DNA of 64,000 nucleotides from an uncultured Alphaproteobacteria bacterium (GCA_949493535.1 CASZWJ010000004.1:38877-102876); one strand, 5' to 3'; counted from the stretch's first letter, positions 13,315 through 60,028 are shown. Made by a program: numbers and translations. The notes: generated by a model from the sequence alone, not told the origin.

Positions 13315-15639
13315 CTACTCAGCATACTTGTCATCAAATGTCGTCAAGCACATTAGAGTCGCAGTACTGTAGCCGGGGTCGCAAGGAGTTTTAGCTCCTG
13401 ACGAGCAACAATATTTTTTACCGTTACAAGTCTTTAAAGTACCGTTGCAGCCACCGATTCCCGGATTTACCGGATTAAGTGTCGCGTTCAGTTTCCATGT
13501 GCCTTTGACATAATTTGAGTCATATGGGCAAGTCGCCGTAACAGTAAATGTGTATTCCTTATACTGATACTGAGGATCATCTATTATGTCCACTCTATCG
13601 CCGACAATCGGCTTGCTAGGATCGATAACAGGTTGATCGGTGGCTAGAAGACCACAGCAATAGTAAGCCTGACAAGAGGATGTACAATTTTGTTTACATG
13701 AATTTATCATGTTTGCCGGACAACCCTGAGCTAACTCAGGAGTTGTGATAGCAGCCTGAGCAGACTTCAGTTCGATGATATTCTTCATGAAGTTAGCCAG
13801 CATTGAGCTCGGGATAACCGTTTCATTAGAAGCTGTCGGTTTCGGCCAGTCTTCTTTCAGACGATAACCTTCATCCAAGCATTTCTGAGCATTGCTCTTA
13901 GCTTCGCAAGCCGTATATTTTCCACCGCAAGACTCACCTTTCAGCGTTCCTGAACAGTTGGAAGAATTATAGATATACTTGCTCTGAGAACACGGGCAAC
14001 CAGGCTGTCCGGGTTGGATATCGGCAACTTTCTTACTGCTGTTGCCACCGGTTCCGGTCCAGCTTTCGCATCTGTAATCACCGTCAATACCACCCTGGAA
14101 GACACTGGTCGTTACACTCGGGTCTGTCTTGATGAGACCATTTACAGTTACTTTTCCTTTATACGTATAAGTACGTTTCTGAGAATAGTAACCGCCGTTG
14201 GAAACAACCAAACCTGATATCAATTCTTTCGTTTTGAAAGCATTGGTAACGGTTGAATCGCCCCACATACGCAACCATGCAACTTCATAAGTTCCGTTAT
14301 CTTTCGGAGTTCCGGTTGTTACATTTGCAGTATGACCATAGGCATCCCATCCGCATTTGCCATTCGGAATAGTAATGTTACCATCAGAATTGACGAAGTA
14401 ACGAGAGCATTTGTCTGTCGGACAGTTACTGTTCTTTTTCGGACAACCTTCAGAACCCTGCGGAATATTGTCTTTAATTACATGCCATTTATTTGCACCA
14501 CTATCGGCGGAAACTGTTTGGCAGGTAAAGTCGCCACAGACGCCTTTTTCAAATCTGACGGTTGTGACACCGGGTTCCAAACGTATTTTATCGGTTACGG
14601 TTACCAAACCTTTATAGGTAATGGTACGCTTCTGTTTATACGGTCCGCCGTTGGAGATAACCATACCCGGCGTTAAAATACCGGTTGTAAAGTCACCGAT
14701 AACGGTAGAGTTGCCCCACATACGAATCCATGCCGATGAATAGCTTTTACCGGACGGAACCGTAATGGTTGCCGTATGTCCGTAAGTATCCCAAGAACAT
14801 GCAGAATCCGGAATTGTGTGAGAACCGTCACCATTCCAGAAGTGTCCGCAGTTTGAAACAGACTCACATTTACCGCACTGTTTGCCGGCACTGTAGTATG
14901 AAGAACCTTTCCAAGACGTCATTCCCGAACAAGTGGTTTGGCTTGTCGAATACCCGCTCGGGCAAGGTGTAGGCGTGCATTTATAATGAGTGCCGCTGCT
15001 ATCCGAACATGATGAACAGGTATAACCTTGGTGAGAAATATCACTGCTGTAAGAATAATCAGCTTTACACTTACAAGCCTTATAACGCTGGGTTGAATTT
15101 ATTTTGCACCCGTTAGTGACATCGATAATCTTTTTGGAATCTCCGCAGCTGGCATCATTCGTATAAGGATATGCCGATGAAGTACAGCCACAGGCATCGC
15201 CAAACGTACCGCCGCCATCCTGCCGGCAAATTTTTCCAGAATAAAGCGCACTACCCTGAGTATTGCCTGCACCAGAGGTCGCATAGCAGTTATTTGCGCT
15301 GTACGGGAACTTTTTACCGTTACAAAAACAGGTTTTATATTTATTGCGATTAAACGGGCAAAAATCGGCAGCATCCTGATTGTTCGGGCATTTACCCGTT
15401 TTACCATAAGCTGCACAGTTGTTTGTCGGCTTTCTTCCGGGGATATTATCTCCGGCCCAGCCGGTTTCGCTGTCTTTTAAATCAGGCAGGAATTGTAAGC
15501 CTGCATATTTTTGAACATTTACCGAGTCGGCCATTGAATCCAATGTAAGACTCATTTCTCCTGCTGCAAGCGAATTGCCGGCAAAACACCAAAGGCCTGC
15601 CGCCAGCGCCCACAACAGGTAATTACATTTCTTAAACAT
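13315..15639 (-). CDS. Large secreted cysteine-rich protein of unknown function (about 775 aa, about 85 Cys), with internal tandem about 100-aa domain duplication
   Basis: A GAGGTG RBS precedes ATG 15639. The N-terminus MFKKCNYLLWALAAGLWCFAGNSLAA is a signal peptide. The composition is dominated by C, G, S, T, Y, K and N. Two paralogous modules share the motifs C(S/G)WD(T/A)YGHTA and AW(I/L)RMWG(N/D)STV and SNGG(P/Y)Y(K/S)QKRT(I/Y)TYKG. One is at about residues 290-390 (DSACSWDTYGHTATITV...) and one at about 430-530 (NGKCGWDAYGHTANVTT...). Many N-x-S/T sequons. No homolog recognised. Confidence 0.6.
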   Translation of the reverse strand: MFKKCNYLLWALAAGLWCFAGNSLAAGEMSLTLDSMADSVNVQKYAGLQFLPDLKDSETGWAGDNIPGRKPTNNCAAYGKTGKCPNNQDAADFCPFNRNKYKTCFCNGKKFPYSANNCYATSGAGNTQGSALYSGKICRQDGGGTFGDACGCTSSAYPYTNDASCGDSKKIIDVTNGCKINSTQRYKACKCKADYSYSSDISHQGYTCSSCSDSSGTHYKCTPTPCPSGYSTSQTTCSGMTSWKGSSYYSAGKQCGKCESVSNCGHFWNGDGSHTIPDSACSWDTYGHTATITVPSGKSYSSAWIRMWGNSTVIGDFTTGILTPGMVISNGGPYKQKRTITYKGLVTVTDKIRLEPGVTTVRFEKGVCGDFTCQTVSADSGANKWHVIKDNIPQGSEGCPKKNSNCPTDKCSRYFVNSDGNITIPNGKCGWDAYGHTANVTTGTPKDNGTYEVAWLRMWGDSTVTNAFKTKELISGLVVSNGGYYSQKRTYTYKGKVTVNGLIKTDPSVTTSVFQGGIDGDYRCESWTGTGGNSSKKVADIQPGQPGCPCSQSKYIYNSSNCSGTLKGESCGGKYTACEAKSNAQKCLDEGYRLKEDWPKPTASNETVIPSSMLANFMKNIIELKSAQAAITTPELAQGCPANMINSCKQNCTSSCQAYYCCGLLATDQPVIDPSKPIVGDRVDIIDDPQYQYKEYTFTVTATCPYDSNYVKGTWKLNATLNPVNPGIGGCNGTLKTCNGKKYCCSSGAKTPCDPGYSTATLMCLTTFDDKYAE

Positions 15640-16078
15640 AATACACCTCACACACTTAACACTATACACAGCATTATTGTATAACAAAATTGAAATGATT
15701 TAAAGTCAATGAAACAAGTTATACGTGTTTTTTCGTTAATTGTAACATTTTTGTAACAATTAAAATAAGCGGGCGGAAATTTTGAAAGATGACGAAGACA
15801 TTGTCCGGAGTCCGAAACTGCTGTTTTTACAAAAGCCAATCCATTTCTTAACAAAAATGTCACATTTTTTGTCTAGGCGGGGCTATGAAAATATGATATG
15901 TTGAATTTGTTATCTTAAGTATATTGCTATTAAAATGGTTTATTATTGGAAATGTTGTCAGAAAATTAAAATTTTAGAATTCTCTAGAGTTTTTAATATC
16001 TGTTCAGTCTGATGATTTACCTTTTATAAGTGCTTCCGATGACAAAACAATATTAACAACTCTAAAATTTTTACAACT

Positions 16079-16711
16079 ATGGCAACAAACATGGTAAGCA
16101 ACAACGAAGTTCTCAACCTGCTCAACAACTCCAAAATGACCGCTATCCCCACCGGCGCCGAGCGACTCATCATCCCGGCTTTCGGCTTCATCGGAGGTAT
16201 CGCTACTCAACGTGAAGAATGGGGTGCAAACGGCGCTTTCATGGAAGATGTTATCGGACTCGAGTTTTATAACGACAAAGACCGGAAGACTCAGGTACTC
16301 AAGGCTGCTGACGGATGTCTCATCTGCTATGCCGCTCCCGGCCGTCTGGAAGCTGTCAAAGAATATCTCGAAGAGAACTCCGACACGTTTGCTACCGCCG
16401 ATGGTGTGACCGCCCTGATTAACTTCATAAAAGAAGATATGGAACTCGACGGCCTCACTCCCGACCTCTACGACACGGATGTCAACTTTGCTCAGGGTCT
16501 GCTCGGCGCTCCCGCTGAAATCACTGTCGGCGTTCCTTTCACCGGCGTGAAGAAAAAGGAAGTGCTTACGGTCATCGAAGTTGCTCCCGGAACAGAGTTC
16601 GGCGGCGCGACGGCAGGCGAAGACGGCGCTTACATCAGAAGAGATTCCAAGGGTGACATCAAGATGGTTCAGCGTGCTGAATTTCTCGCCGCTTACCAGC
16701 TCTCTGAGTAA
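16079..16711 (+). CDS. Hypothetical acidic protein (210 aa) with atypical C-ending codon preference
   Basis: ORF with a clean start and a hairpin terminator. Codons are overwhelmingly C-ending (ctc, atc, ggc, gcc, acc, gac, ttc), unlike neighbouring genes, and local GC is about 52% against about 44%. The sequence MATNMVSNNEVLNLLNNSKMTAIPTGAERLIIPAFGFIGGIATQREEWGANGAF... matches no recognised domain. Confidence 0.5.
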   Translation: MATNMVSNNEVLNLLNNSKMTAIPTGAERLIIPAFGFIGGIATQREEWGANGAFMEDVIGLEFYNDKDRKTQVLKAADGCLICYAAPGRLEAVKEYLEENSDTFATADGVTALINFIKEDMELDGLTPDLYDTDVNFAQGLLGAPAEITVGVPFTGVKKKEVLTVIEVAPGTEFGGATAGEDGAYIRRDSKGDIKMVQRAEFLAAYQLSE

Positions 16712-16738
16712 TCTTCACTAAAAAACTTTTTGTTTTTC

Positions 16739-16763
16739 GGCTCCCCTCGGGGAGCTTTTTTTT
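16739..16763 (+). terminator. Rho-independent terminator (GGCTCCCC-TCGG-GGAGC + T9)
   Basis: GC-rich hairpin followed by TTTTTTTTT directly after the 16079-16711 stop. Confidence 0.5.
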
Positions 16764-16827: not shown

Positions 16828-17343
16828 CTATTCTACCTGCCAACTTTTAGAAAACTCTTCATCTTTGAACAATGAGGCCAATCCTGTTATTTGCTTTAAC
16901 CTTAAAACCTCATCCGCCGACATGCCGATATTGCGGCAAATCCACGCATCAGACTTGCCCATTTCCAAAAGTTCTTTAACAATATTGCTCATCAGATCGA
17001 TATTATGGCTGCCGCGGGCACGGTTATGGCGTATGGTTGATGCCATGCGTTCTCCCAGCTCTTTATCAATCACGACAACCGGTGCCATGCCCTGCTCCCG
17101 ATCACGAATGCGGTCGTTGGTCATTAAAATCGTGTAGCGGTGAAAGCCGTCAACCACAATATATTCATCCCGCCTCTTATCATAATAGCAGACAATCGGC
17201 TGGGTGAAACCGTCTTCCCATATTGAAAGCTCCAGCAGTTTCATTTCCGGCGGCGCAACTTTATTCGGATTATAATCATTCGCGCGGATTTTTTTGAGCG
17301 GAATTGCTTTAACATTATAAACGGGACTGATAAACTGGCTCAT
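16828..17343 (-). CDS. ParB/sulfiredoxin-fold (ParB N-terminal nuclease-like) domain protein, IbrB-like
   Basis: 171 aa. IPLKKIRANDYNPNKV...LLELSIWEDGFTQPIVC...YIVVDGFHRYT carries the DGxHR motif of the ParB/Srx superfamily. It is the last gene of a three-gene minus-strand operon. Confidence 0.7.
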   Translation of the reverse strand: MSQFISPVYNVKAIPLKKIRANDYNPNKVAPPEMKLLELSIWEDGFTQPIVCYYDKRRDEYIVVDGFHRYTILMTNDRIRDREQGMAPVVVIDKELGERMASTIRHNRARGSHNIDLMSNIVKELLEMGKSDAWICRNIGMSADEVLRLKQITGLASLFKDEEFSKSWQVE

Positions 17344-17353
17344 CGTTTTATCC

Positions 17354-18655
17354 TTATAGTTTTCTGTATTTATCCATTAATTCGGCTTGGCGGGATTTCT
17401 GCTTTTTTGATTCCGAAAAGCCCATATGTTTACACAAATGGTCATTTTTCAAAATGCAGACAGCCATGCGTTTCCAAGACGGAATGTCTATAGACGATTT
17501 TATATCATCTGTATTATCCGGCGTTCCTAAAAAGCGGACGCGTTCTTTGCTTGATTTATAATTGCTCTGTCCGTTTATTGAAACGGGATAATTGCAAGCC
17601 TCCAGCTCTTTGATTGTTTCTTCACAAACCACACCGCCGGTTTTCCACCAAAAGCGGATAGACGTTGAGAATTTTTTGATATAATTACGGCGGATTTCTC
17701 CCGGCAGGGTTGCCAGCAAAAATTTTACGTAAGACCGCCATGTATGCCCTTCCGGCAACGTGATTTTACCGCAGCCCAAGGCTCTGGTATTGCCGTAAAT
17801 GGCGCCAAAATTTGCCCCGTGTACACGCCCGACGACTTTTGCCCAAGTTACGGGTTCCAACACCCTATATAAATTCAGACTGTCCTTCGCGCTTTCGTGA
17901 TAGGGGCTGGCTACGCGCATTTGCGCTATTGACAGCCCCGCTTTCCAATATAAATCATAAATTTCATTATAATCAAAATCAAATTTGGAATTGGCCGTCC
18001 AGACGTCTTTTACCGTCCAATCATACAACGGATAAGCATTATACAAATTATCAGCCAGTTTTGTCGTCCATTGCCGGTTTTTAAGAATATCTTTATGAAC
18101 ATTGGCATAAGCACGATAACGATTTAAAGATTCATCCGCGCGAATGCCCAGCAGGCAAATGCTTTTTCCCTTATGGCTATTGGCATACCAATGCCCGAAA
18201 CCGGCATATAAATCTTCTTGCAGCATTTTATCTTTATAAAAATCAAACGGATTATTTTCTTCATTAATGACATAAGGAAAAGCCGGCATCGGACGAACCC
18301 AGGCCTCTTTCTGGGATTTCTCCCACGGATACCAATAGATTTGAAAATTGCTGACGGCACAGCGCGATGCCATCGGCAAACATACCCAATAAGGCTCTAT
18401 TTGCCCGAGGTTGTTTTGAAACATGCGGGTCACATATTGCGTCGTCAAATCATATTGAGCCTCAAAATCCTGATGAAATACGCCTATTTTGCGGTTAATT
18501 TGGTGTTTTTTGACATAGTCAAGCACCAAATTCAGCAAAAGCCCGCTGTCTTTGCCGCCGGAGAATGACACATAAATATTTTCAAAATTTTCGAAAATAA
18601 ATTTCAGCCTATCCTGCAGGGCATCATAAACATTTATATCCAAATATTTTTTCAT
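17354..18655 (-). CDS. PAPS-reductase-like / PP-loop ATP pyrophosphatase family protein (IbrA/DndC-like), 433 aa
   Basis: N-terminal YVSFSGGKDSGLLL is the SGGxDS PP-loop of the PAPS reductase / DndC / IbrA family. A long C-terminal extension is present. It lies 10 nt upstream of the ParB-like gene and overlaps the SNF2-like gene by 4 nt. Confidence 0.7.
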   Translation of the reverse strand: MKKYLDINVYDALQDRLKFIFENFENIYVSFSGGKDSGLLLNLVLDYVKKHQINRKIGVFHQDFEAQYDLTTQYVTRMFQNNLGQIEPYWVCLPMASRCAVSNFQIYWYPWEKSQKEAWVRPMPAFPYVINEENNPFDFYKDKMLQEDLYAGFGHWYANSHKGKSICLLGIRADESLNRYRAYANVHKDILKNRQWTTKLADNLYNAYPLYDWTVKDVWTANSKFDFDYNEIYDLYWKAGLSIAQMRVASPYHESAKDSLNLYRVLEPVTWAKVVGRVHGANFGAIYGNTRALGCGKITLPEGHTWRSYVKFLLATLPGEIRRNYIKKFSTSIRFWWKTGGVVCEETIKELEACNYPVSINGQSNYKSSKERVRFLGTPDNTDDIKSSIDIPSWKRMAVCILKNDHLCKHMGFSESKKQKSRQAELMDKYRKL

Positions 18656-19911
18656 AAGCTTAAAACGGCCTCCCTAGACATCTGACGGCATACATTATTG
18701 AGCACGATTTTCTTGCGGTTGAGATTATCGCGGATTAATTCTTCCAGACCGGTCTTAACCCAAAAATTATAAATATTCACCGTCCTTGCACGCAGCTTTT
18801 GATTCAGATTATACAGGCTCTGCACTTTATCTTTATAATCAAAGGTCTGAGAAAAATAGATAATGTTGTCGCAAGCATGCAGACTCAAATGCAAACGGTC
18901 AACCCGATAAGTGCAGAACATAATATTAATATCTCTCTCAAAACAGCGGATTGCCCGCAACTTGTTTGAACGCCCCGTCAGTTCGACAAAAGCGCCTTTG
19001 ACAAAGCCGCCGCTTTCGCGCAGAAAAACCACCTCATCCAAATACTTGGTATAAATGATAACTTTTTCGTTGCGTTTTTCAATCTGACGCACCAGTTTGA
19101 ACAAAGCTTCCACCTTGTTTTTGGCAATTGTGTAGATATGTTGGAACTTCTGAGCGACTTCCATAAAAGCCACGTGATATTTGCCTTTCAAAAAATCTTC
19201 TTTTTCCTGACGGTAGTTTTTGGCTTCTGCCGGCGTCAATTCAAAATCCTGATTGTAATGGCGCAAATTACTATTCCAATCCTTTAAATCAAACTTAAAA
19301 ATATAAGGGCGTATCATTTGTATCAATTTTTTTTCGTTTTCGGGCGTTGACCAGCGTCTACAGGTTTTAAAATCATCAAAATAAAACGGAAGGAAATAAT
19401 TGGCAAACTGAGTTTCCGTCATTCGCAAAATATTTGAATCAATAAATGTCAGCTGGGCATATAAATCTATCAGCCCCTGCGTCAACGGCACTGCGCTCAA
19501 AATCAGCCTGTATTTGAATTTTTTATGTATCGACAAAAGCCGCCGCGTTCTTCCGGCTTCAGAATTTTTGATTGTCAAACTGTCGTCAACCACGCAAAAT
19601 GTTCGATATTTATCGCAGATATTATACAATCGCAAATACTTTTCATCAGACAAAGAAACAGATTCAATCGAAAAAAAACAAATTTTTTTGGCAGTCTCTC
19701 CGGCATAAAACCTTATCAAGGATTTGTATTCCGGCGTGCCGAAAAAAGCTGACGGCGCTATCCAAATAACAAAATCTATCTCTGAGAGCTTTGAGCGGAT
19801 TAAATCAACAGCGAACTTTATTTTTTCATCGCTCGCATTTATAAAAACAGCTCCCGCTTTAAGACAGGAGAGTTTTTTACTTGCTTCCTTAAACTGCCGG
19901 CTGAAATTCAT
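18652..19911 (-). CDS. SNF2-family helicase-like protein with degenerate ATPase motifs (probable pseudo-ATPase), 419 aa
   Basis: It aligns by motif spacing to the SNF2 N-domain. VIWIAPSAFFGTPEY matches motif Ia (LIVxPxSxxxNW). FCVVDDSLTIKN matches motif II, with DDSL in place of DEAH. RLILSAVPLTQGLIDLYAQLTFID matches motif III (LLLTGTPLQNxLxELWSLLNFL), with SAVP in place of TGTP. The motif I position reads GAVFINASDEKIK, with no GxGKT P-loop. The C-terminal half has helicase-C-like VIIYTKYLDEVVFLRE...FVELTGRSN...IMFCTYRVDRLHLSLHACDNIIYFSQTFD but lacks the QxxDRxHRIGQ arginine-finger motif. Confidence 0.6.
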   Translation of the reverse strand: MNFSRQFKEASKKLSCLKAGAVFINASDEKIKFAVDLIRSKLSEIDFVIWIAPSAFFGTPEYKSLIRFYAGETAKKICFFSIESVSLSDEKYLRLYNICDKYRTFCVVDDSLTIKNSEAGRTRRLLSIHKKFKYRLILSAVPLTQGLIDLYAQLTFIDSNILRMTETQFANYFLPFYFDDFKTCRRWSTPENEKKLIQMIRPYIFKFDLKDWNSNLRHYNQDFELTPAEAKNYRQEKEDFLKGKYHVAFMEVAQKFQHIYTIAKNKVEALFKLVRQIEKRNEKVIIYTKYLDEVVFLRESGGFVKGAFVELTGRSNKLRAIRCFERDINIMFCTYRVDRLHLSLHACDNIIYFSQTFDYKDKVQSLYNLNQKLRARTVNIYNFWVKTGLEELIRDNLNRKKIVLNNVCRQMSREAVLSL

Positions 19912-20066
19912 TTTTTACTTACATATCTTATTATATACTACTTCTAATATACAACCATTTTGCCTTTTATACCATATTTTGCTCATCTTTTTCAACAAGC
20001 ACATCTTTCCGATGAAAAAACTTGAAATAAGACTATTTTAAATTAGACTGATGAAAAATTTACATT

Positions 20067-20504
20067 GTGAAAGTTAACATTATGAAAAAATTGCCGATAA
20101 TTACAGCCGCTTTTATGCTGGCTGCCATATCTGCCCAAGCTGAAAAGCCGGAAGAAACTCCTGATAACATTCAAATTCCCGAACAATATCTGGAAATTGA
20201 CAAAGGGTGTCAGAATTCTGATATTTATCAATATAATTCGTGCCTGAAAGAAGCTTTGTTCAAAATCATGTCCGCAACATTGACCGAAGAACAGATTGAT
20301 GATTTAAAATCGCAGCTGGCCGGCATTGAACAAGAAGTTGACACTGCAGAGCCGGATTATGATAACCCTCAGGTTAAAACAGCAGAAGGCAATGAAAGCA
20401 AAATAAAAGAGATGCGCGCCGAGAGCATGAATTTGATATGGAAAAGAATTTTAATTGAAACGCTGAACAGCCTGAATGCCGTTACGGCCGGCCAGAATGC
20501 TTAA
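20067..20504 (+). CDS. Hypothetical secreted protein (145 aa, signal peptide MKKLPIITAAFMLAAISAQA)
   Basis: Clear Sec signal peptide. The mature part has a two-Cys segment, CQNSDIYQYNSC, and coiled-coil-like EEQIDDLKSQLAGIEQEV. Possibly a DUF1311/LprI-like fold, but this is not certain. Confidence 0.45.
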   Translation: MKVNIMKKLPIITAAFMLAAISAQAEKPEETPDNIQIPEQYLEIDKGCQNSDIYQYNSCLKEALFKIMSATLTEEQIDDLKSQLAGIEQEVDTAEPDYDNPQVKTAEGNESKIKEMRAESMNLIWKRILIETLNSLNAVTAGQNA

Positions 20505-20540
20505 AAAAAACCCCGCTTAAAGCGGGGCTTTTTGTTTTTT
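20505..20540. terminator. Bidirectional rho-independent terminator (A8-CCCCGCT-TAA-AGCGGGG-T12)
   Basis: Perfect 7-bp GC stem flanked by A8 and T-rich runs, exactly between the convergent stops at 20504 (+) and 20540 (-). Confidence 0.6.
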
Positions 20541-48742: not shown

Positions 48743-49132
48743 ATGAAAAAAATATTTACATTCATATCCTTAATATTACTCAACTGTTGCCATGCAACGG
48801 CTGAACAAGAACAAAGATTTGTCAATCCGTTGTTTTATAAAACGATGGAACCGGTTTCAACCATGGCATGGCGGACAAAAATTACGCCGACTTCTCTAGT
48901 TAGTGACAACAAGGGTACAGTTTTAGAGCAAAAATGCACCCTTGCCGAAAACACTATGGACACAGTCACGCTTGATTGCGAAGGCGCTTACGAAAAAGAA
49001 AAAAGAACCTTATACCGTATTGTCTCGCAAAAAAGAGATTCTGATGGGATTTTTATTGTTATATATTTTAAATCTCCCATAGAAGAAGAATATATTTCTC
49101 AAGATACATTTTTTATTTATGATAATCCTTAA
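48743..49132 (+). CDS. Small secreted protein, paralog 2 (129 aa)
   Basis: It has the same leader, RBS and first about 60 mature residues as paralog 1 (ATAEQEQRFVNPLFYKTMEPVSTMAWRTKITPTS). The C-terminal third diverges. Confidence 0.5.
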   Translation: MKKIFTFISLILLNCCHATAEQEQRFVNPLFYKTMEPVSTMAWRTKITPTSLVSDNKGTVLEQKCTLAENTMDTVTLDCEGAYEKEKRTLYRIVSQKRDSDGIFIVIYFKSPIEEEYISQDTFFIYDNP

Positions 49133-49830
49133 TAATTCAGCCTTTTGATTTTGCGGATTTCATCTTCAGCCCATTGGTTGCGTTTTATACCAACCTGGTA
49201 TCTATGTACATTATCTAATATTCCTTTAATGCTGCGCTTAGCAATAGCCTTATGTAAATTTGGCCAATTTATTGGCAAGACATTGCCGGTGTTATATTTG
49301 ATATCCAGTAAAACATTTTGCAGTTCCGGCGGAAAACGGTCAAAATCTTTAAACGTGTCCCGCAGTTCTTTCAAATCATTATTCACATGCATGTCATATA
49401 ACCGTCGTATTTCTTCATCGGCAATGCGCAGCGGCGTTTTATCCTCATAATAATCGGCTTTATAATTATTTCCTTCCATTTCGTGTAAAACATTTCGATA
49501 TTTAACAGCATCATCGGGACGAATCCTCCGTTTCTGCTCATCCATCCACTCCATGCTTCTGAATTTGTCTTCATCATCAATATTGATGCCGGCACCGATT
49601 GTAATTTTGCCCACACTGTCTTTATAGGGAAAATTTTTATTTCCTTCATGAGCTTTAATTATCGGATACATTCTTTCGCGAATCTCATGGTCAGGATCCG
49701 CCGCTTGCGCGGCGGTCCTTGACGGCGTGTTAAAAAATCCGGCGGATGCGTCAGGATTCTCGTTTTCTTTCTGCCGGCGCATTTTTTCCATCGGGTCTTC
49801 CTGAGTAATATAACGAATCAAGTTAGCCAT
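49129..49830 (-). CDS. Phage lysozyme-family protein (GH24 / T4-lysozyme-like catalytic region), last gene of the phage block
   Basis: IKAHEGNKNFPYKDSVGKITIGAGINID matches the GH24 pattern (E-G-x-x-L-x-A-Y-x-D-x-x-G-x-x-T-I-G-x-G) including the catalytic Glu. 233 aa with N- and C-terminal extensions. Confidence 0.5.
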   Translation of the reverse strand: MANLIRYITQEDPMEKMRRQKENENPDASAGFFNTPSRTAAQAADPDHEIRERMYPIIKAHEGNKNFPYKDSVGKITIGAGINIDDEDKFRSMEWMDEQKRRIRPDDAVKYRNVLHEMEGNNYKADYYEDKTPLRIADEEIRRLYDMHVNNDLKELRDTFKDFDRFPPELQNVLLDIKYNTGNVLPINWPNLHKAIAKRSIKGILDNVHRYQVGIKRNQWAEDEIRKIKRLNY

Positions 49831-49847
49831 ATTTCTTCTCCTCCTGT

Positions 49848-50045
49848 TTAATTTTCTTTAGGATATTTTGCTTTGATATCCTGCCATTTTTCTATCAGGT
49901 CTATCAGTTCATACGGCAAGTCGCCGCCGGCCTGAAGCACAAAGTCAAAAGCTTTCAAGATTGTATCCAACTGGTCGCCGACCGGCAGATATTTGTTGTA
50001 GGCGCGTTGTCTTTTTTCACGATAAGTCATTTTGGTTCTAGGCAT
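49848..50045 (-). CDS. Hypothetical phage protein (65 aa)
   Basis: Small ORF within the phage block. No recognised domain. Confidence 0.35.
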   Translation of the reverse strand: MPRTKMTYREKRQRAYNKYLPVGDQLDTILKAFDFVLQAGGDLPYELIDLIEKWQDIKAKYPKEN

Positions 50046-50056
50046 TTTATTTCTCC

Positions 50057-50452
50057 TTATTTGATTATTTTTCCGGTGGTTGAGATGACAGACGACAATA
50101 AATTGCGGTTGCCGCTGCGGCGCAGGTTTTCGTATTCCTGCTGATATTTGAAATTATTTTCGGCAATGTCTTCATAAGCTTCTTTAGCCATTCGCTGTTC
50201 GACGGCGGCTGCCGATTTGCTCGATGTGATGCCTATGGCGCCCAATCCAGCGCGGCGGTTTGCCAATTGCGTTTCAAGCAGATTTTTCCTCTTTTGGGCC
50301 GAGGCTTGGCGATTTGCTTCCATATATTTCATTCTTTGTTTATCAGCGGAAGCATTGTTCATCAGATTCATTGCCGTCATACCGACCGAAGCGGCCGTTG
50401 CCAGACTAATTCCTCCCATTTGTTTTCTCCTAATCTTTGGTTTTGATTTCAT
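50057..50452 (-). CDS. Hypothetical phage protein (131 aa; basic N-terminus, Ala/Gln-rich)
   Basis: It lies directly downstream of the tail tubular B-like gene, overlapping it by 23 nt. Possibly a minimal internal virion protein, assigned by position only. Confidence 0.35.
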   Translation of the reverse strand: MKSKPKIRRKQMGGISLATAASVGMTAMNLMNNASADKQRMKYMEANRQASAQKRKNLLETQLANRRAGLGAIGITSSKSAAAVEQRMAKEAYEDIAENNFKYQQEYENLRRSGNRNLLSSVISTTGKIIK

Positions 50453-52328
50453 TTACTGCCGAAAGCAGCGTAAAGGCGCAAGGCACCTCGCTTTTGATGC
50501 TCCACATCGGTTTTTCCAAATCTCTTATCCAACCGATAGAACGCAACTCAACGTCTCCGTTAAAAATTGTCGGAGGCGAATCCAAAATCTGATTGCGATA
50601 CATCTTTTTCAGCGGCACTTCAAAATAGCCGCTGCCAAAATCAAGTTTCAGCGACTTTGAAGCTATAATGCGAAACAACCCGTAGACCACACGGTAAGCT
50701 TTCGGCGGGAACGGACGCATAGCATCATTCATAAACGGCAGCGGTTCGATAATATGTTCATACGGCAGCCCGACCATAATTTCAGAGGCTTCTTCATTCA
50801 GCGTGATTTTGCCGTCAATAACGGGAAAAGAACCGACGGTAAATTCATCGGCGACAACCATCACTTCTTTGCCTTCCAAATAGTCAAGCCCGCTCCATTC
50901 CGCCTGAGGTTCTTCCGCTGTAAATCTTTTTCCGCAGTCTACAAAAAAGGCTTCGTCAAAAGTCTCCAAAAAGAAACTTTCTCCGCGTTTGACCACAAAA
51001 TAAATATCGTCGCCGATAACCGCCGTAGACATAAATTCTCCGGCAGTCTTAAGCCGGCTCCAGGCATTGACTTCTTCCGTCCGGTAAGTTGTCAGGCAGG
51101 AAACGCTCCCGTCTTCCAAAACAATGTATAAAACGCTCTCGTCCTGATAATAAACCGTGTCTTTCGGACTGCTGATAATGCCGCTTGAAAGCAAGGTTAA
51201 ATCTTTGGCCTGATAGGCCTGTTCGACATCGGCATATAAAAATTCGCGCAATTGTTTGCCACTTTGCGAAATAAATGTCGTGGCACCGTCAATATTCTGC
51301 GGCGGCAAGGTATAACGCGCATAGCTGCCGATGTTGGTTTGGCGGTTCAGCCTGATGCTTGACGGCGTGAGCGGTTCGCCCGAAACCATCCATTCGGCAC
51401 CGGTGGTAAAAACCAACAGATGTCTGGTGGAAACAACGCTGGTAATGGCATTAACCTGATCAGACAAAATGGCAAAATCTATCGCTTCGTCATCTTTGCC
51501 GGTTCCGATGTCAAAGTTGAACAAATCCGACGATTTTGACAGCCACATGCGGTTCGGCAGGCTTTTTGAACCGCCGATAACCATACGGTCCTGATGAAAG
51601 GTTACCGCATTCGGATACCCGCGTAAGGCCGAAAAAGCCTGCTCCTCCCAATCTGTCGTTCCGCCGTTGCCGGAAAGGTTTTTGTTAACCGTCGCATTGC
51701 ATTTGGCCGGCGAAGCAACGGAAGTTATTGTCACCTGACCGCCGTTTATGCGCAAACGGATCCCGACATAAGCCGAAGTAAAAATCTCTTTATCTGCGGT
51801 TAAAGTAATGTTGCCGGAGGTTCCGCTCGGCGTCAGTTTCGTTTTATGTTGGTAAAAATTAAAATACGGGCAAAAAACCTGCCCGCCTGACGTATAGTAT
51901 TCCCATTCTCCGATTTGCCATTCTTCATTGGCATTGCGGCTGATTTGGCGCGGAGCCACATCAGGATGCACAATAAGCAACGTGTCGGCACTCTGCGTCC
52001 AGTTGATGTTTTTAAGCTGTGCCAAAGTCCACGGCGTTTCCAATGAAGCAATCGCTTCGCCGTTTTTATAAACCGTCATTGTTTGATTAAGCAGGCATAG
52101 CAAATAAGTTTGTTCGGTATTAAATTCAAAAGCAATCAGGCGGGCCGATGACGGCAATTCATCAATAAAACGCAGGCCGCTGCGTCTCGAAACGCCGCCG
52201 GTCGGGTGAATTATGACATTTTGCAGCGTTTTGGCGCCGTTTTCAAAAATCCGCAAATCGCCGCGCCCGAATAAATTGGCCGAAACCTGACCGGCCGTAA
52301 AATTGCTTTTGACACAAATTTGACTCAT
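50430..52328 (-). CDS. Tail tubular protein B-like (T7 gp12-like), 632 aa
   Basis: Its position follows the gp11-like gene. The segment DFAILSDQVNAITSVVSTRHLLVFTTGAEWMVSGEPLTPSSIRL parallels T7 gp12 VSTNRIAILKYAVPFSEELLIWSDEAQFVLTASGTLTSKSVEL. Size class and beta-rich composition are consistent. Confidence 0.5.
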   Translation of the reverse strand: MSQICVKSNFTAGQVSANLFGRGDLRIFENGAKTLQNVIIHPTGGVSRRSGLRFIDELPSSARLIAFEFNTEQTYLLCLLNQTMTVYKNGEAIASLETPWTLAQLKNINWTQSADTLLIVHPDVAPRQISRNANEEWQIGEWEYYTSGGQVFCPYFNFYQHKTKLTPSGTSGNITLTADKEIFTSAYVGIRLRINGGQVTITSVASPAKCNATVNKNLSGNGGTTDWEEQAFSALRGYPNAVTFHQDRMVIGGSKSLPNRMWLSKSSDLFNFDIGTGKDDEAIDFAILSDQVNAITSVVSTRHLLVFTTGAEWMVSGEPLTPSSIRLNRQTNIGSYARYTLPPQNIDGATTFISQSGKQLREFLYADVEQAYQAKDLTLLSSGIISSPKDTVYYQDESVLYIVLEDGSVSCLTTYRTEEVNAWSRLKTAGEFMSTAVIGDDIYFVVKRGESFFLETFDEAFFVDCGKRFTAEEPQAEWSGLDYLEGKEVMVVADEFTVGSFPVIDGKITLNEEASEIMVGLPYEHIIEPLPFMNDAMRPFPPKAYRVVYGLFRIIASKSLKLDFGSGYFEVPLKKMYRNQILDSPPTIFNGDVELRSIGWIRDLEKPMWSIKSEVPCAFTLLSAVNEIKTKD

Positions 52329-52894
52329 TGCCTGACCTCCACCAAACTGAAATCTTCAAAACAAGACGGGGTGGATTGCTGCGCGTCAATCGAACGGGCG
52401 CGGCTGATTGAAGCTTCTGCCAATTTATTTAAAAACTCCGCGCGGCTTGAAGATTCCGTCAACGGAATACAAAATTCAAAAGCAAGTTTATTTATCAGCG
52501 CTTCACAGAAATAAGCCGGAAAAATATTTTCATCCGGCCGGTATATATAAGTCAGATTGATTCCGTTCAAGTTGGTATGCAGGCGGTCTTCCACAATGCG
52601 GTATTCAATGCCGCGCCCTTTTGAACCGAAACCAGCCGAAACAATCCGCAAAAAATCATTCGGCAGCTGATATGCAAAATCATAATCCGCCAAAGGGCAT
52701 GTCTCCAAACGCGGCAATTTTGCCTGAGCTACGGCAAAACTCCAAGGATAAGCGGAAAGCAGCCCGTCACGGATACAGGGGTAAAGGTTTGCCGCAACTT
52801 CGGCTTCGGCAGTCCCTTCTTCAAAAGATGTAATGGTAGAGGCTCCGATTTTGAGCAGAGCTTTGGAGCATAAGCTTATGCTGGTATAGGTCAT
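52325..52894 (-). CDS. Tail tubular protein A-like (T7 gp11-like), about 190 aa
   Basis: AGGAGA RBS 9 nt before ATG 52894. MTYTSISLCSKALLKIGASTITSFEEGTAEAEVAANLYPCIRDGLLSAYPWSF parallels the T7 gp11 N-terminus ([48 protein letters not shown]). The length matches gp11 (196 aa). Confidence 0.5.
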   Translation of the reverse strand: MTYTSISLCSKALLKIGASTITSFEEGTAEAEVAANLYPCIRDGLLSAYPWSFAVAQAKLPRLETCPLADYDFAYQLPNDFLRIVSAGFGSKGRGIEYRIVEDRLHTNLNGINLTYIYRPDENIFPAYFCEALINKLAFEFCIPLTESSSRAEFLNKLAEASISRARSIDAQQSTPSCFEDFSLVEVRQ

Positions 52895-52910
52895 GAGGTG
52901 TTTCTCCTGA

Positions 52911-52939
52911 TAAAAAAGGGAGCCTGAAAACAGGCTCCC
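52911..52939 (-). terminator. Rho-independent terminator inside the structural module, one small gene after the capsid gene (analogous position to T7 Tphi)
   Basis: On the minus strand the hairpin GGGAGCCTG-TTTT-CAGGCTCCC is followed by TTTTTTAT. Confidence 0.5.
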
Positions 52940-52972
52940 CCTCATTTGCCAATAGATGTACGGGTTAAAAAC

Positions 52973-53236
52973 TTATGCGGCAGGCGTATATGGAGCAATA
53001 ACCGCAACGGTGACGCTCTCGGAAGATACGCTGCTGACAGACAAAATTGCGGGCTGCGGCGCGTTTGCCGTATCTGCATTTACCAAAACCATATCTCCGG
53101 GTCTGGCAAACGGCGCAATTTCATTAAAATAACCGTCGGCTTTGACCGCGGCCAATTCGTCTTCGGTCGTGTAGTTCCACAGGGTGAAACCGTTGGCATA
53201 AGCCATTACGCTGAAATTTTTAGAATTATATGACAT
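52973..53236 (-). CDS. Hypothetical small phage protein (87 aa) following the capsid gene
   Basis: AAAGGA RBS before ATG 53236. MSYNSKNFSVMAYANGFTLWNYTTEDELAAVKADGYFNEIAPFARPGDMVLVNADTANAPQPAILSV... Possibly a minor capsid or decoration protein, assigned by position only. Confidence 0.35.
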   Translation of the reverse strand: MSYNSKNFSVMAYANGFTLWNYTTEDELAAVKADGYFNEIAPFARPGDMVLVNADTANAPQPAILSVSSVSSESVTVAVIAPYTPAA

Positions 53237-53264
53237 TCTTTTTTTTCCTTTCTTAAATATTGAA

Positions 53265-54089
53265 TTAAGCTTCTTTGCATTTGATGCGGACAACGCCGGT
53301 CTCGTCAATCAGGCAGGCGCCCTGGCTCATCATGTTATTGACGAAGTGGGCGGCATGGTCGCCGTGCCAGGTGATGTCTGACTTGACATCCTGTCCGGAA
53401 GCGTGGCCGACGGCCGTTTTATGGAAGATGAAGCAGTCGCGGTTGGTGCCGTTCAAAGGCAATCCGGTGTGCATAATCCAGTTAATGCCCAGCCATTTGC
53501 GGCTCTCAGTGCCTTTCAAAAACGGCAGGTTGTCGCCGGCATAGTCAGAACTTGAAAATTCAGGGATATTCAGCAGCGCATTCCACTGCAACGGGCCGAC
53601 AATGCCAAAACGCTGGCCGTCATCAGGAACATCTTTTTCATTAAGTTTGGCAAAAGCGTTCAAAATATCAGCTTTAGCCAAAGCTTTGCCATAATCGCCG
53701 ACATCATTGCCGTCAGACGCTTTGTTCAAAGCGCCGATAATCAATTCGTCGGTTTTGCGGCCCAAGGCGTAAGCGCCGGCGGAAGCAATCACGCGGCGTT
53801 CGTCAATGCTCATTTTGAGTTCATCCAAAGCATCGACCCAATCGCCGGCATAATAATCCTGCAGCTCGCATTCGACCGGAGAATGGTCTACGCTCATTAC
53901 CGGAACCAAACCATGGCGGGCTTTGCCGGAGGCGATGCCTTTGCCGACTTTTTGGAAAACGGTTGAAGAACCGATGACATCGTTCTTAAAACGGACGGTG
54001 TTTTTTAATTTAGAGCCCATTTGCTGATAAGCCAAATGGACATCTGCTTCAAAGTTTTTAATAAAAGACTTGCTGACTTGTGTTGTCAT
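53265..54089 (-). CDS. Major capsid protein, T7 gp10-like (274 aa)
   Basis: Its position follows the scaffold gene. The C-terminal region AAHFVNNMMSQGACLIDETGVVRIKCKEA resembles the T7 gp10 C-terminus (AKYAMGHGGLRPEAAGAVVFKVE). The composition is typical of HK97-fold podovirus capsids. Confidence 0.55.
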   Translation of the reverse strand: MTTQVSKSFIKNFEADVHLAYQQMGSKLKNTVRFKNDVIGSSTVFQKVGKGIASGKARHGLVPVMSVDHSPVECELQDYYAGDWVDALDELKMSIDERRVIASAGAYALGRKTDELIIGALNKASDGNDVGDYGKALAKADILNAFAKLNEKDVPDDGQRFGIVGPLQWNALLNIPEFSSSDYAGDNLPFLKGTESRKWLGINWIMHTGLPLNGTNRDCFIFHKTAVGHASGQDVKSDITWHGDHAAHFVNNMMSQGACLIDETGVVRIKCKEA

Positions 54090-54131
54090 AATTTATTACT
54101 CCTGATTAGTGATTATATATAAATTCTGTGG

Positions 54132-54842
54132 TTATTTTTCGGGATAAAGCTTTTCAAAGCCGCGGGTGATTTTGGCAATGTAAGCGCTGTCTTTGTCTCT
54201 CCAATATCTGGGGTCTTCCATCATCTTGCGCAGAGATGCTTCGCTCAGATTTTCAACCGCGCCGCCTTCTTTGCTCAAAGACGGTTCGGAAGAAGACATC
54301 ATGTTATACAAAGCAATAACGCCCTCTGCCGTCGAGCCAAGCGCATCATAAACTTCGGGGTTGACATTTTGTTTCGCCCAAGCAGAAATCTGGCGCGAGA
54401 CTTCATTAAACTTATCTCTGCCGCCAAAATGCCGGCTCAGTTTTTCCAATTGGCGTTCCGCTTCAAAATTGACGCCCATTTCGCCCAAAACAGGCAAAAC
54501 CCTTTCGCCGGCCAAGTCATAAACGAGCTGCGCCTGTTCATTAGTGAAACGCTTTTCATAAAACTTTTTCAAAATATCGTCATCAACGTCCAGCAGCGGC
54601 GACGGCGACTTGATTTGATATTTGTCATAGCTTTCGGGAATATTGCGCAGATTAGTTTCAACGAGATTGTCGTCTCTGGCAGCCAAATCGTTGTATGCCC
54701 GAACTAATTCCTCCAGCTTTACCTGTCCTGTTTTTTCATCCAAGAACTGTTCCGGCAAAGCTTTCGGATATTTGGCAAAGCTGCTCTCTGTTGAACCGGC
54801 TGAAGATGCTTCAACCAGATTTTTTTCTTTTTGTAATTCCAT
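54132..54842 (-). CDS. Putative scaffolding protein (236 aa, acidic, helical)
   Basis: It is located between the portal and capsid genes as in T7 (gp9). It is highly charged and helical (...KLEELVRAYNDLAARDDNLVETNLRNIPESYDKYQ...). Confidence 0.45.
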   Translation of the reverse strand: MELQKEKNLVEASSAGSTESSFAKYPKALPEQFLDEKTGQVKLEELVRAYNDLAARDDNLVETNLRNIPESYDKYQIKSPSPLLDVDDDILKKFYEKRFTNEQAQLVYDLAGERVLPVLGEMGVNFEAERQLEKLSRHFGGRDKFNEVSRQISAWAKQNVNPEVYDALGSTAEGVIALYNMMSSSEPSLSKEGGAVENLSEASLRKMMEDPRYWRDKDSAYIAKITRGFEKLYPEK

Positions 54843-54862
54843 TATTTATCCTTTCTAAAAAA

Positions 54863-55096
54863 TTATGATTGCCGTCCGCCGAGCTTTTCTATCAGCTTGA
54901 CTAAATGTCTCTGCCCTTCTAAGTGGCGCAATTCGTCACTTGAGGCATCAGGACCCAAATAACGCTCAACGGTCAAACGGCGCAAAAAAGAGAGGACAAC
55001 CATGCCCTCTCCGGTTTTAAAGCACTTGGCAAACGCGGCGCGGATTTCCTCATCGCCCATTTGCTCCGTGCAATAAATGTTACTATGCGGCGGCAT
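54863..55096 (-). CDS. Hypothetical small phage protein
   Basis: ORF partly overlapping the portal 3' end. Start uncertain. Confidence 0.25.
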   Translation of the reverse strand: MPPHSNIYCTEQMGDEEIRAAFAKCFKTGEGMVVLSFLRRLTVERYLGPDASSDELRHLEGQRHLVKLIEKLGGRQS

Positions 55097-56618
55097 TGTC
55101 AGAAGCTCCGTCGCCGAGTTCAGGCAATTCCAAATCAAGCGGCTGCTCGTTAATCAGTTTGGCCGGTACATTTAAAATTTGCCCGATTGTTTTGGCAGCC
55201 TCAAACATATTGACTGCTGCCATGGCACCGATACCCATTCCGGAAACAATGCCGACCCATTCGGAAATATTGCCGACATCTGCTTTGGCCTGAAGCATGG
55301 CCAGAGGAGATTTGTATTGCAAATCGACAATCTTGCCGTCTAAGTCAAAATTCAGGATATCGCCGCGGCGGCGCAAAATATGAAAAGCCCTTTTCAAAAG
55401 CGGCGTCAGCAATTCTGACTGCAAACGCCCGAAACTGGCGCCCAAAATCCGCGCAATTTCTGCCGAACGTTCCAAAACTTCGGTTGCCGTCATGTTCGGC
55501 GTTTCAACCTGAGACAAGCGGTCTGCCAATAAAGAATGGTTAATCCGCTTTTGCAGGTTTTCCAAAATAAGTTGAGAAACATCAAATTTACCCGGAGATT
55601 CCAGAGGCGTCAGCCCTTTGGAGCCGACAGCCTTCGGGATAATAGCTCCCGGAACCAGTTTGATATTGGCCGGATTTAAAATGCCGTCATCATCGGCCTG
55701 CCAAATGCCTGTCACCGAAATTGACGCGTTTTTCAAAATCAGTTCCACAACCTTGTTGGCCGTTTTGATATCCGGCAGCGCTTTCATGACCGGCGACCGC
55801 CCGTAAACTTCTCCCGGCGCTTTCAGCCAGCGGAAATTAATAAACGGCGACGTATCAAAAATGCCTTCCTTGACAACCAGATTTTCTTCGATGCCGGCAT
55901 TTTCATCCCAAACGAAAGCCGTATATTCATAACCGGCAGCGCCGAATTTGCCGTGTCTGGGCATAACGGCTTCAATCAAACTCAAACGAAAATCGCTGTC
56001 ATTTTTTGCCCTTTCCTGCCAGATCTCGGGAATTTCAACCTCAGGAAAACGCAAGCCGATTGCTTCCAATCGGATTTCCGAACGGCGAAAAGTCGTATCC
56101 AAACGCCCGTCAGCGCTTTCTTCCAGCGCAATTTCCCGCAGAGGAACCGCGTAAAAGCGAAAGGCAGAGCTTTCCCCAAGCGGCGCTTCTTCAAACATAA
56201 GGCAGGCTGTTCCCGCCGTTACCAAATCCAGATAACATTGGTGAATCTCAACCGCAAAATTAGAATGTTCAAAATTTTGAAGCATGATTTCTGATGTTTT
56301 CTCCAAGGTATCAGCTACTTGGCTCCGCTCTTCCGAAGTCAGTTCAGAACCTGCCTTTAAGCCGAACCATTTGGCCCAAGGCGGCGTCAGTTCCGCCAAA
56401 AGCGATGAGGCCAGCTGATCGACGGCATCGGGCGCGGTTCCGTCAAAAAGGTGAATATTCTTTTTTGAACCGCAATTTTCCGATACCTGCATTGAACAGG
56501 CATTTTCACGCTGCGGCAGCGCATATTCATAACACTCCTGCCAATGCGGTTCCCATTGCCGGCGCCGTTCTTCCGCTTTTTTATAACGTTCGATAAGTTT
56601 TTCGATTTTGTTGTCCAT
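55083..56618 (-). CDS. Portal (head-to-tail connector) protein, T7 gp8-like (511 aa)
   Basis: APGEVYGRSPVMKALPDIKT parallels T7 gp8 LDGESYGRSYIEEYLGDLRS. The size of 511 aa against 536 for T7 gp8, the acidic C-terminus and the position before the scaffold gene fit the assignment. Confidence 0.6.
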   Translation of the reverse strand: MDNKIEKLIERYKKAEERRRQWEPHWQECYEYALPQRENACSMQVSENCGSKKNIHLFDGTAPDAVDQLASSLLAELTPPWAKWFGLKAGSELTSEERSQVADTLEKTSEIMLQNFEHSNFAVEIHQCYLDLVTAGTACLMFEEAPLGESSAFRFYAVPLREIALEESADGRLDTTFRRSEIRLEAIGLRFPEVEIPEIWQERAKNDSDFRLSLIEAVMPRHGKFGAAGYEYTAFVWDENAGIEENLVVKEGIFDTSPFINFRWLKAPGEVYGRSPVMKALPDIKTANKVVELILKNASISVTGIWQADDDGILNPANIKLVPGAIIPKAVGSKGLTPLESPGKFDVSQLILENLQKRINHSLLADRLSQVETPNMTATEVLERSAEIARILGASFGRLQSELLTPLLKRAFHILRRRGDILNFDLDGKIVDLQYKSPLAMLQAKADVGNISEWVGIVSGMGIGAMAAVNMFEAAKTIGQILNVPAKLINEQPLDLELPELGDGASDNAAA

Positions 56619-56621
56619 TAA

Positions 56622-56828: not shown

Positions 56829-56870
56829 TTGTTTTCTCCTAAAAAAAAGCCCTTGTTTCCAAGGGCTGCG

Positions 56871-58109: not shown

Positions 58110-58121
58110 TGTTAAAATTCC

Positions 58122-59935: not shown

Positions 59936-60028
59936 TTAATAAAACTCCATAAAAAAAAGTCCAACCGCTGGCTGAACTTTTAACTTTTTTTGGATACACT
60001 ACTGGCAAGTGATAGAATCATCTATAAA

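Follow-up and report, generated by a model that had tools for sequence, protein, structure and literature searches.

We consider here a stretch of 64,000 nucleotides (nt) from an uncultured alphaproteobacterium (GCA_949493535.1, CASZWJ010000004.1:38877-102876), the whole of which is called the window below, and in it an operon of three genes, the triad, that spans positions 16828-19911 on the minus strand. In the order of transcription the open reading frame (ORF) map gives a SNF2-fold protein of 419 amino acids that is a predicted pseudo-ATPase (18652-19911), an IbrA-like protein of 433 amino acids (17354-18655) and an IbrB-like mini-ParB protein of 171 amino acids (16828-17343). The SNF2-like and IbrA genes are joined by a stop/start overlap, ATGA, with GGGAGG ahead of it; the IbrA and IbrB genes are joined by a TAA stop codon and a 10-nt spacer (ggataaaacg) leading into the ATG, with AAGGA spanning the stop codon. 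A preliminary description of this DNA had reported three coupled genes on the minus strand; its coordinates are exact and both junctions are seen.

The three proteins

Pfam finds SNF2-rel_dom in the first protein (2.1e-7, 30.8 bits against a cutoff of 24.9), covering profile positions 101-230 of 290, and in the second it finds PAPS_reduct (PF01507, 1.4e-10) followed by DUF3440 (PF11922, 4.2e-77) in one protein. The third protein matches ParB_N at 3.8e-5, slightly under the gathering cutoff, and the Helicase_C match of the first, at 15.5 bits, lies under the cutoff of 23.5, while active relatives reach 44.9 bits. The domains that the preliminary description had expected are thus all recovered, Helicase_C and, narrowly, ParB_N with scores under their cutoffs.

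The relationship of the first protein to SNF2, which had also been proposed, is upheld by both profile and structure comparison. A profile of the SNF2-like family recovers SNF2 remodellers from the PDB at E ~1e-23, and the archaeal SsoRad54 core (1z63) over positions 92-406. The AlphaFold2 model of the protein (predicted local distance difference test, pLDDT, 83.6; predicted template modelling score, pTM, 0.78) superposes in Foldseek on the motor cores of ISW1, Mot1, CSB and INO80 with a template modelling (TM) score of ~0.7. The protein is a minimal two-lobe SNF2 core, a member of the SNF2 family by descent and by fold, and a predicted pseudo-enzyme. Ten long representatives of the SNF2-like family contain only SNF2, Helicase_C and ResIII domains and one GNAT domain; they are uninformative because none is fused to IbrA or IbrB. 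The G+C content of the SNF2-like gene is 0.37-0.40 (window positions 18001-20000), against 0.45-0.47 for the IbrA and IbrB genes and a window average of ~0.43.

When the protein is aligned to active phage relatives, GAVFINASDEKIK stands where those have GALFMKMGTGKTK (the place of motif I), DDSLTIKN stands at the place of DESL/IxIKN (motif II), ILSAVP (SAVP) at the place of ILNGTP (NGTP, motif III), and QSLYNLNQ at the place of QSxxRIYRTGQ (motif VI). Of the catalytic motifs, the protein thus has replacements in the Q-motif, in motifs I, III, V and VI and at the E of motif II. A site-wise comparison of conservation in 92 active and 67 degenerate SNF2-like sequences separates what is lost from what is kept. 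Conserved only in the active group are Q7 (Q-motif), G27/T28/G29/T31 (motif I), N139/G140/T141 (motif III), N343/L344/Q345 (the end of motif V), R368/R371/G373/Q374 (motif VI), K113 and K120. Both groups conserve 45 positions, including W50 and P53 of motif Ia and, in motif II/IIa, D109, S111, I114, K115, N116, R121, T122 and R124, and a further 16 positions, W187, S188, E193, F296 and E299 among them, are conserved in the degenerate group only. Judged by their position in SNF2 enzymes, the kept residues of motifs Ia and II/IIa would be DNA-contacting. A pseudo-enzyme in which the fold and the contacts to DNA or to partners are preserved would be expected to show this pattern of loss; random decay would not. 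The peptides quoted in the preliminary description are present, and the replacement of catalytic signatures that it described is confirmed by the alignment to active relatives and by the site-wise comparison.

The N-terminal domain of the IbrA-like protein belongs to the PP-loop, or PAPS-reductase-family, ATP pyrophosphatases and carries the motifs SGGKDS and GIRxDESxNR, the first of which is invariant in all the relatives' loci compared. The protein falls into the phage family phrog_2302 (2e-110). Its AlphaFold2 model has a pLDDT of 71, with a good N-terminal PP-loop domain and a poor DUF3440 (pLDDT 35-78). Foldseek of the N-terminal domain returns the PP-loop, or adenine-nucleotide alpha-hydrolase, fold (PAPS reductase, FAD synthase, CysD, TtuA/NcsA, TilS, GMP synthase); since DUF3440 is poorly modelled, only such generic PP-loop relatives are obtained, and a search of solved structures finds no IbrA homologue.

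The IbrB-like protein belongs to phage family phrog_2159 (4e-79), and its residues 11-148 match Spo0J (1vz0) in phmmer, including part of the DNA-binding region. The motifs of its ParB/Srx N-terminal domain (NDYNPN, DGFHR, IRHNRARG) are nearly invariant, DGFHR fully so across the relatives' loci compared, and the C-terminal segment reads like a helix-turn-helix (HTH). Among the three proteins it shows the strongest conservation.

The triad in phages and chromosomes, and the pair in E. coli

We turn to the phages, where the same genes are common. By tblastn, adjacent SNF2-like and IbrA genes are found in cultured phages of Lactobacillus (CR28, phiAQ113), Streptococcus (PY2) and Clostridium scindens, and in many Flavobacterium phages (FCV-1, 6H, FCL-2 and others). 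At least 285 viral contigs in IMG/VR carry a SNF2-like relative, and the best 80 matches, which resolve into 79 distinct loci, supply the viral counts given here. GxGKT and RxxRxGQ are both kept in 75 of 78 SNF2-like copies, and the phage copies also keep DESxxIKN and NGTP. Two of the three exceptions (L108 and L173) probably miss a motif because they start close to a contig end or right at it, and the third (L152), without the motif VI pattern, may be a motif variant. Identity to the window protein does not exceed 46% in any of these copies. The active copies lie beside terminase, portal or Mu-F genes or within phage genomes. The triad is complete in 69 of the 70 viral loci that have enough room, in the order SNF2-like-IbrA-IbrB at 45 loci, SNF2-like-IbrB-IbrA at 15 and IbrA-IbrB-SNF2-like at 9; together with the genome loci described below, this bears out the expectation that the triad is conserved as a unit.

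Phage loci carry one gene more. Immediately upstream of the SNF2-like gene lies, in almost every one of them, a small ORF of 95-130 amino acids belonging to phrog_27058 (for example L008:1271-1570 and L010:5362-5751, and in most of L095-L173), so that the phage unit effectively has four genes. Several phrog_27058 clusters share a C-terminal HHxPxKIxPLENN tail, like EHH(S/T)PxKIxPLENNxIxKLKK. Neither the window nor the degenerate clade has this ORF, which would seem to be a fourth component whose loss accompanied that of the ATPase activity. The phage-borne triads thus have the same three gene families as the window, tightly linked and usually in the same order, and differ in that the phages keep the motifs and the small ORF whereas the window clade has lost both and is chromosomal. 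As to position, the triads of phages CR28 (L009, 6977-9933) and PY2 (L010, 5836-8777) lie between the lysis cassette and early genes (Cro/antirepressor or replication), where temperate relatives have lysogeny or moron genes; in four other phages or prophages (L008, L011, L081, L091) the triad lies just upstream of portal or terminase genes.

Parts of this association have been noticed before. The authors of the FCL-2 genome remark that IbrA, IbrB and two upstream ORFs are common to phage and host (PMC4541368), and Listeria monocytogenes EGD-e has the same triad as the window, annotated as lmo1309 (IbrB), lmo1310 (IbrA) and lmo1311 (SNF2-family), in a chromosomal set specific to Listeria sensu stricto (PMC5736727). 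The literature searched holds no functional description of the triad, and the small fourth gene of the phages is undescribed there. The preliminary description knew of no described system that couples such a pair to a degenerate SNF2. Given the phage triads with an active SNF2 and the Listeria annotation, the pairing with SNF2 as such is not peculiar to the window; what appears undescribed in the same literature is the ATPase-dead, chromosomally fixed alphaproteobacterial clade.

That clade is defined from a scan of one genome per species, which gives 147 SNF2-like relatives, of which the best 80 are kept. About 70 of these 80 come from metagenome-assembled genomes (MAGs) of uncultured gut Alphaproteobacteria (CAG:495, 'Candidatus Scatocola', 'uncultured Azospirillum'), and the remainder from Holosporaceae, Arcobacteraceae, Opitutales, Melioribacteraceae, Clostridia and Gastranaerophilaceae. 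All three genes are present in every genome locus with enough sequence. The losses of motif I and motif VI are perfectly coupled, with both missing in 70 loci, all of them alphaproteobacterial MAGs, and both present in 16. A neighbour-joining tree groups the 67 degenerate sequences in a single clade that contains no active member. A search of 1.84 billion cluster representatives gives 226 clusters at E<=1e-30, and about four clearly degenerate full-length clusters are found among the best 150 of these. A few full-length representatives of the family outside the alphaproteobacterial clade, P0420, P0443 and P0493 among them, likewise do not match the simple GxGKT / RxxRxGQ patterns; these could be independent ATPase losses or motif variants. 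The exact SNF2-like sequence of the window recurs, with the same neighbours, in the MAG GCA_965647215.1.

Within the clade, the SNF2-like proteins are 42-79% identical to that of the window, the IbrA proteins 70-86% and the IbrB proteins 77-88%, and the reading frames are intact and of constant length in 67-70 species. In unsaturated pairs (Nei-Gojobori), the ratio of nonsynonymous to synonymous divergence (dN/dS) is 0.024-0.075 for the degenerate SNF2-like gene and 0.011-0.063 for IbrA, with IbrB of the same order. The dN of the SNF2-like gene is 2-3.6 times that of IbrA in the clade, as against roughly 0.5-1 in three active-clade pairs, which indicates that constraint on it has been relaxed and not lifted. 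Because the catalytic signatures are gone while the gene is under purifying selection, the earlier suggestion of a non-hydrolysing scaffold rather than a motor is a fair one.

The flanks of the degenerate loci are housekeeping genes in a few recurrent arrangements, with no phage genes among them. One has flgK-flgN-flgJ-like-flgI upstream of the triad, a second has mutL-zip upstream and lpxK-kdtA downstream, and a third, that of the window, has murE-ompA upstream and an ABC-F gene downstream; other flanks include nagA/nagB, mnmA, an aldo-keto reductase and a citrate transporter. The window arrangement recurs in two distant species (L013 and L014) whose MurE is just 61% identical, and synteny across such a divergence means that the locus is old and vertically inherited. 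A recent accessory islet is accordingly rejected: in this lineage the module lies in conserved housekeeping neighbourhoods and not in a mobile islet. What we see in the operon is a phage module, present as a copy in the chromosome and inherited vertically.

The IbrA/IbrB pair by itself is more widespread still, with more than 7,700 homologues of IbrA/IbrB-type genes at E<=1e-5. We know of no biochemical function for any of them; E. coli IbrAB is reported to activate prophage eib genes (Sandt et al. 2002, cited in PMC6008420). E. coli K-12 ybdN/ybdM (L092, 6748-8570) are clear homologues of the window genes (BLASTP 9e-64 and 31% identity for IbrA with YbdN, 9e-53 and 49% for IbrB with YbdM), as the preliminary description had supposed in calling the downstream pair IbrA/IbrB-type. 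The window proteins are closer to phage triad-type copies than to YbdNM, with IbrA 46-48% and IbrB 63-68% identical to them. E. coli IbrA/IbrB of the ECOR-9 island and the paralogues YbdN/YbdM, through which the comparison is made, have the same PAPS_reduct and DUF3440 IbrA, the same DGFHR/RHNRARG IbrB, and genes that are adjacent or overlapping in the order of the window, and by descent the window pair belongs to this kind. Of 5426 complete E. coli genomes, 5401 carry ybdNM with a query coverage of 80% or more (best place per genome), and the pair is repressed by the adjacent LysR regulator CitR/YbdO (PMC9068703). IbrA homologues also occur on 711 plasmid records, mostly of Klebsiella, E. coli and Salmonella. 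Two of these contexts were inspected, both on large virulence plasmids, E. coli pSA53IncF (L093, 8959-10814) and K. pneumoniae pVirDD01665 (L094, 8959-10820), and there the pair stands beside enterohaemolysin (ehx) or salmochelin (iro) loci. Unlike the window operon, these pairs have no SNF2 partner, neither beside ybdNM nor on the two plasmids, so the pair can function without any SNF2, which fits a dispensable motor activity in the window clade.

Surroundings of the operon

Upstream of the operon lies an AT-rich intergenic region of 155 nt (19912..20066, minus strand), a candidate promoter region with TATAAT at 19935-19930, beyond which the next gene is divergent; a promoter consensus scan finds no strong site in it. 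Rfam over the whole window, with a permissive scan of 16.6-20.3 kb, finds no riboswitch or small RNA, just two tRNAs elsewhere. Downstream, a GC-rich hairpin (16732-16756) stands between the triad and a convergent gene; it is terminator-like for the plus strand and has no T-tract on the minus strand. The preliminary description had placed the module in an accessory islet between terminators. There is one downstream hairpin, shared with the convergent gene; the terminator at 20511-20527 is the neighbouring gene's own, and the locus is syntenic with distant species.

The convergent neighbour (16079-16711, plus strand) encodes 210 amino acids with no Pfam match, and the divergent one (20067-20504, plus strand) encodes 145 amino acids with a signal-peptide-like N-terminus. 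Both are kept in place in the two syntenic species (74% and 36-39% identity), have no linkage to the triad in other subclades, and are lineage-specific genes, not recent arrivals. Pfam and PHROG searches on the window neighbours and small phage ORFs find no known domain. Further along, a gene on the minus strand (13315-15687) encodes a cysteine-rich secreted protein of 790 amino acids with two internal repeats of ~190 amino acids (…C(S/G)WD(T/A)YGHTA…AW(I/L)RMWG(N/D)STV…); nothing corresponds to it at the syntenic position of those species, and it is the sole clearly variable insertion beside the triad.

At ~49-62 kb the window also holds a T7-like podoviral prophage or remnant (49129-60469, minus strand), with lysozyme-like, nozzle, capsid (Phage_capsid_2), T7 scaffold, head-tail connector and terminase genes. 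An S24 LexA/CI-like repressor gene stands beside it (60970-61590, plus strand), and the prophage has no IbrAB genes of its own. The preliminary description had raised control of this element by the triad, for which the prophage would be a candidate target; it lies ~30 kb from the triad, and no link between the two is found.

A proposed domesticated DNA-targeting module and its alternatives

We favour, with a probability of roughly 0.45, the reading that the operon is a domesticated phage DNA-targeting module whose SNF2 subunit is now a non-hydrolysing DNA-binding scaffold, with IbrA and IbrB acting on DNA. IbrB, a mini-ParB with a nucleoside triphosphate (NTP) pocket of the Srx/DndB 'DGxHR' type and an HTH, would bind DNA and serve as an NTP-gated loading partner of IbrA; IbrA, a PP-loop enzyme, would activate its substrate by adenylation; and the SNF2-fold subunit would grip duplex DNA. 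In phages SNF2 would use ATP to move or distort the DNA, allowing the enzyme pair to act along the genome, while in the window clade the SNF2-fold subunit would be a static, non-hydrolysing platform for DNA binding and assembly. The output may be a covalent modification of DNA or of material bound to it, or else a changed state of the nucleoprotein, by which the DNA is read differently, with gene activation (as by E. coli IbrAB on eib) or, in phages, nuclease protection among the possible effects. A bolder version, which we regard as doubtful, is that the four-gene phage module installs a new covalent DNA mark by PP-loop adenylation, guided by the mini-ParB and the SNF2 translocase, and was domesticated in gut Alphaproteobacteria as an epigenetic or regulatory system independent of the ATP motor. 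If true, this chemistry would also account for ybdNM, orphan core genes of E. coli, and for IbrAB as 'prophage co-activators'.

Several points weigh against the DNA-targeting reading. The loss of motifs predicts the loss of ATPase activity and does not prove it; DNA modification and DNA binding by the triad proteins are what we infer, and so is their physical association, from gene linkage and translational coupling. Across 66 clade members the 220 nt upstream of the operon contain AT-rich promoter-like k-mers only, with no common palindrome, motif, operator or parS-like site, and ~150 loci show no linked gene for a sulfur donor, a nuclease or another effector. DUF3440, in its low-confidence model, has no recognisable fold match. 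Most characterised PP-loop enzymes act on tRNA or small molecules, and the IbrA relatives have no conserved cysteine cluster, unlike DndC. IbrA scores far under the cutoffs of the CysH models (TIGR00434, 19.6 bits against 165; TIGR02057, 14.9 against 254) and of the DndC model (TIGR03183, 26.9 bits against 290.4), with a remote similarity to DndC around residues 160-264. Since such NCBIfam and PADLOC matches are weak and partial, the PP-loop protein is neither a CysH nor a DndC orthologue; a CysH-like role in sulfate assimilation is rejected, the ECGLH catalytic motif being absent from the sequence as well, and on the former point the preliminary description had already judged correctly.

The enzymatic part of the DNA-targeting reading is what separates it from a transcriptional co-activator or anti-silencer that involves no DNA chemistry. 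There, IbrB would behave like the ParB-family regulators VirB and KorB, spreading or clamping on DNA so that horizontally acquired genes escape silencing; IbrA would have the part of supplying or using up a ligand derived from a nucleotide, and the SNF2-fold protein would help to remodel nucleoid proteins or RNA polymerase. The reported activation of eib, which is the sole genetic phenotype known to us for the family, points this way, as do the resemblance of IbrB to a mini-ParB with an HTH, the adjacency of IbrAB-like pairs to ehx and iro virulence loci on enterobacterial plasmids, and the frequent position of phage copies just upstream of packaging and late genes. However, the invariant PP-loop site of IbrA implies real catalysis that pure DNA binding leaves unexplained, the upstream regions just described hold no conserved binding site, and the VirB-like behaviour of IbrB is an analogy only; we consider this rival unlikely, if still a serious one. 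A further rival is a complex that modifies RNA, in which IbrA would act like TilS, TtcA, TtuA or MnmA and a phage would alter host or phage tRNAs, and the closest structural relatives of the IbrA N-terminal domain do include the tRNA-modifying NcsA, TtuA and TilS. Both obligate partners, however, come from families that handle double-stranded DNA (the SNF2 translocase fold; ParB with an HTH), and no tRNA gene or RNA motif is linked, which makes an RNA target improbable.

An anti-phage role, with a kinship to Dnd and BREX, had been raised in the preliminary description; after the manner of Dnd, Ssp, BREX-4 or Dpd, IbrA and IbrB would mark self DNA, and DNA without the mark would be sensed or restricted by the SNF2-like protein. 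The resemblance is one of parts. Dnd/Ssp (DndB/DndC, SspD) and the BrxP of BREX type 4 combine a PAPS-reductase-family PP-loop enzyme, a ParB-fold DGxHR protein and an ATPase, as does the window, and the triad echoes DndC, DndB and DndD; in Dnd, however, the ATPase is SMC-like and not SNF2, and the window IbrA is without the conserved cysteine dyad or cluster. In Dpd, the 7-deazaguanine system, a ParB-fold ATPase (DpdB) assists the DNA-modifying enzyme and a SNF2 protein (DpdE) belongs to the same system. These parts resemble the triad, with a similarity that is generic to SNF2 (DpdE, E 0.007-0.07), whereas the TGT-like DpdA and the preQ0 genes do not accompany the window triad. That ParB-fold proteins partner DNA-modifying enzymes is established, which gives the loading role of IbrB in the favoured reading its precedents: DndB (PMC12704722, PMC12839542), DpdB, and a ParB-dependent phage T-dioxygenase reported in PMC13229309. 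Inactive Swi2/Snf2 lobes that have lost their ATP-binding motifs are retained in other prokaryotic DNA-conflict proteins, PglZ of BREX and DndH, where they are proposed to be sensing or binding modules (PMC12839542), which counts for the favoured scaffold as well as for defence; those lobes are single, truncated, fused in large effectors and fast-evolving, whereas the window protein is a complete, stand-alone two-lobe SNF2 core under strong purifying selection with IbrA/IbrB partners.

What decides against defence is that the matches in PADLOC and NCBIfam are weak and partial (ZorD 1.9e-6, DndC 6.9e-8, DpdE as above, DrmD, and BrxP with 19.5 bits over 23 residues only; none for IbrB), all of them far under the family thresholds, and that PADLOC-DB v2 recognises no defence system at the triad. 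The window and ~150 related loci contain no DndA/IscS, DndD, DndE or restriction partner, and no Ssp partner or BREX gene (BrxC, PglZ) lies near the triad in the window. With no effector gene linked, with phage genomes as the ancestral and commonest home of the module, and with clade copies in housekeeping neighbourhoods and not in defence islands, we place little belief in a defence role. A catalogued defence system is rejected, the kinship to Dnd and BREX proves remote, and none of the families Dnd, Ssp, BREX, Dpd and CysH includes the module. Still less credible is a toxin-antitoxin pair with IbrB as antitoxin and IbrA as toxin, which derives from guilt by association in TASmania for lmo1309/lmo1310 and from co-evolving residues between the proteins (PMC7020466). 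Co-evolution indicates interaction only, and the atypical sizes, the enzymatic signatures, the third and fourth linked genes, the strong purifying selection and the E. coli core status all speak against it. The phage origin, the lost ATPase motifs, the lost small upstream gene and the low G+C of the SNF2-like gene might together suggest a functionless, decaying prophage remnant. This we consider the least probable of all: dN/dS is low in all three genes, frames of constant length persist throughout the clade, positions are conserved that are specific to it, and synteny extends over a deep divergence. A decaying pseudogene is contradicted by the selection analysis and is rejected.

The domesticated DNA-targeting module that we prefer concerns a large family, since IbrA/IbrB-type genes are found as core genes of E. 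coli, on enterobacterial virulence plasmids and in hundreds of phages. Phages usually carry the pair alongside an active SNF2 motor and a small fourth protein. This company links the family to DNA transactions, and the four-gene phage unit is the one defined here for cloning and testing. The alphaproteobacterial clade amounts to a natural separation of function, in which the predicted ATPase of the motor can be dispensed with, whereas the SNF2 protein itself and the two enzymes continue to be needed; the loss of the ATPase with retention of the SNF2 protein argues for a structural or DNA-binding role beyond translocation. It offers a clean case of the domestication of phage genes with the formation of a pseudo-enzyme, in abundant uncultured bacteria of the human and animal gut.

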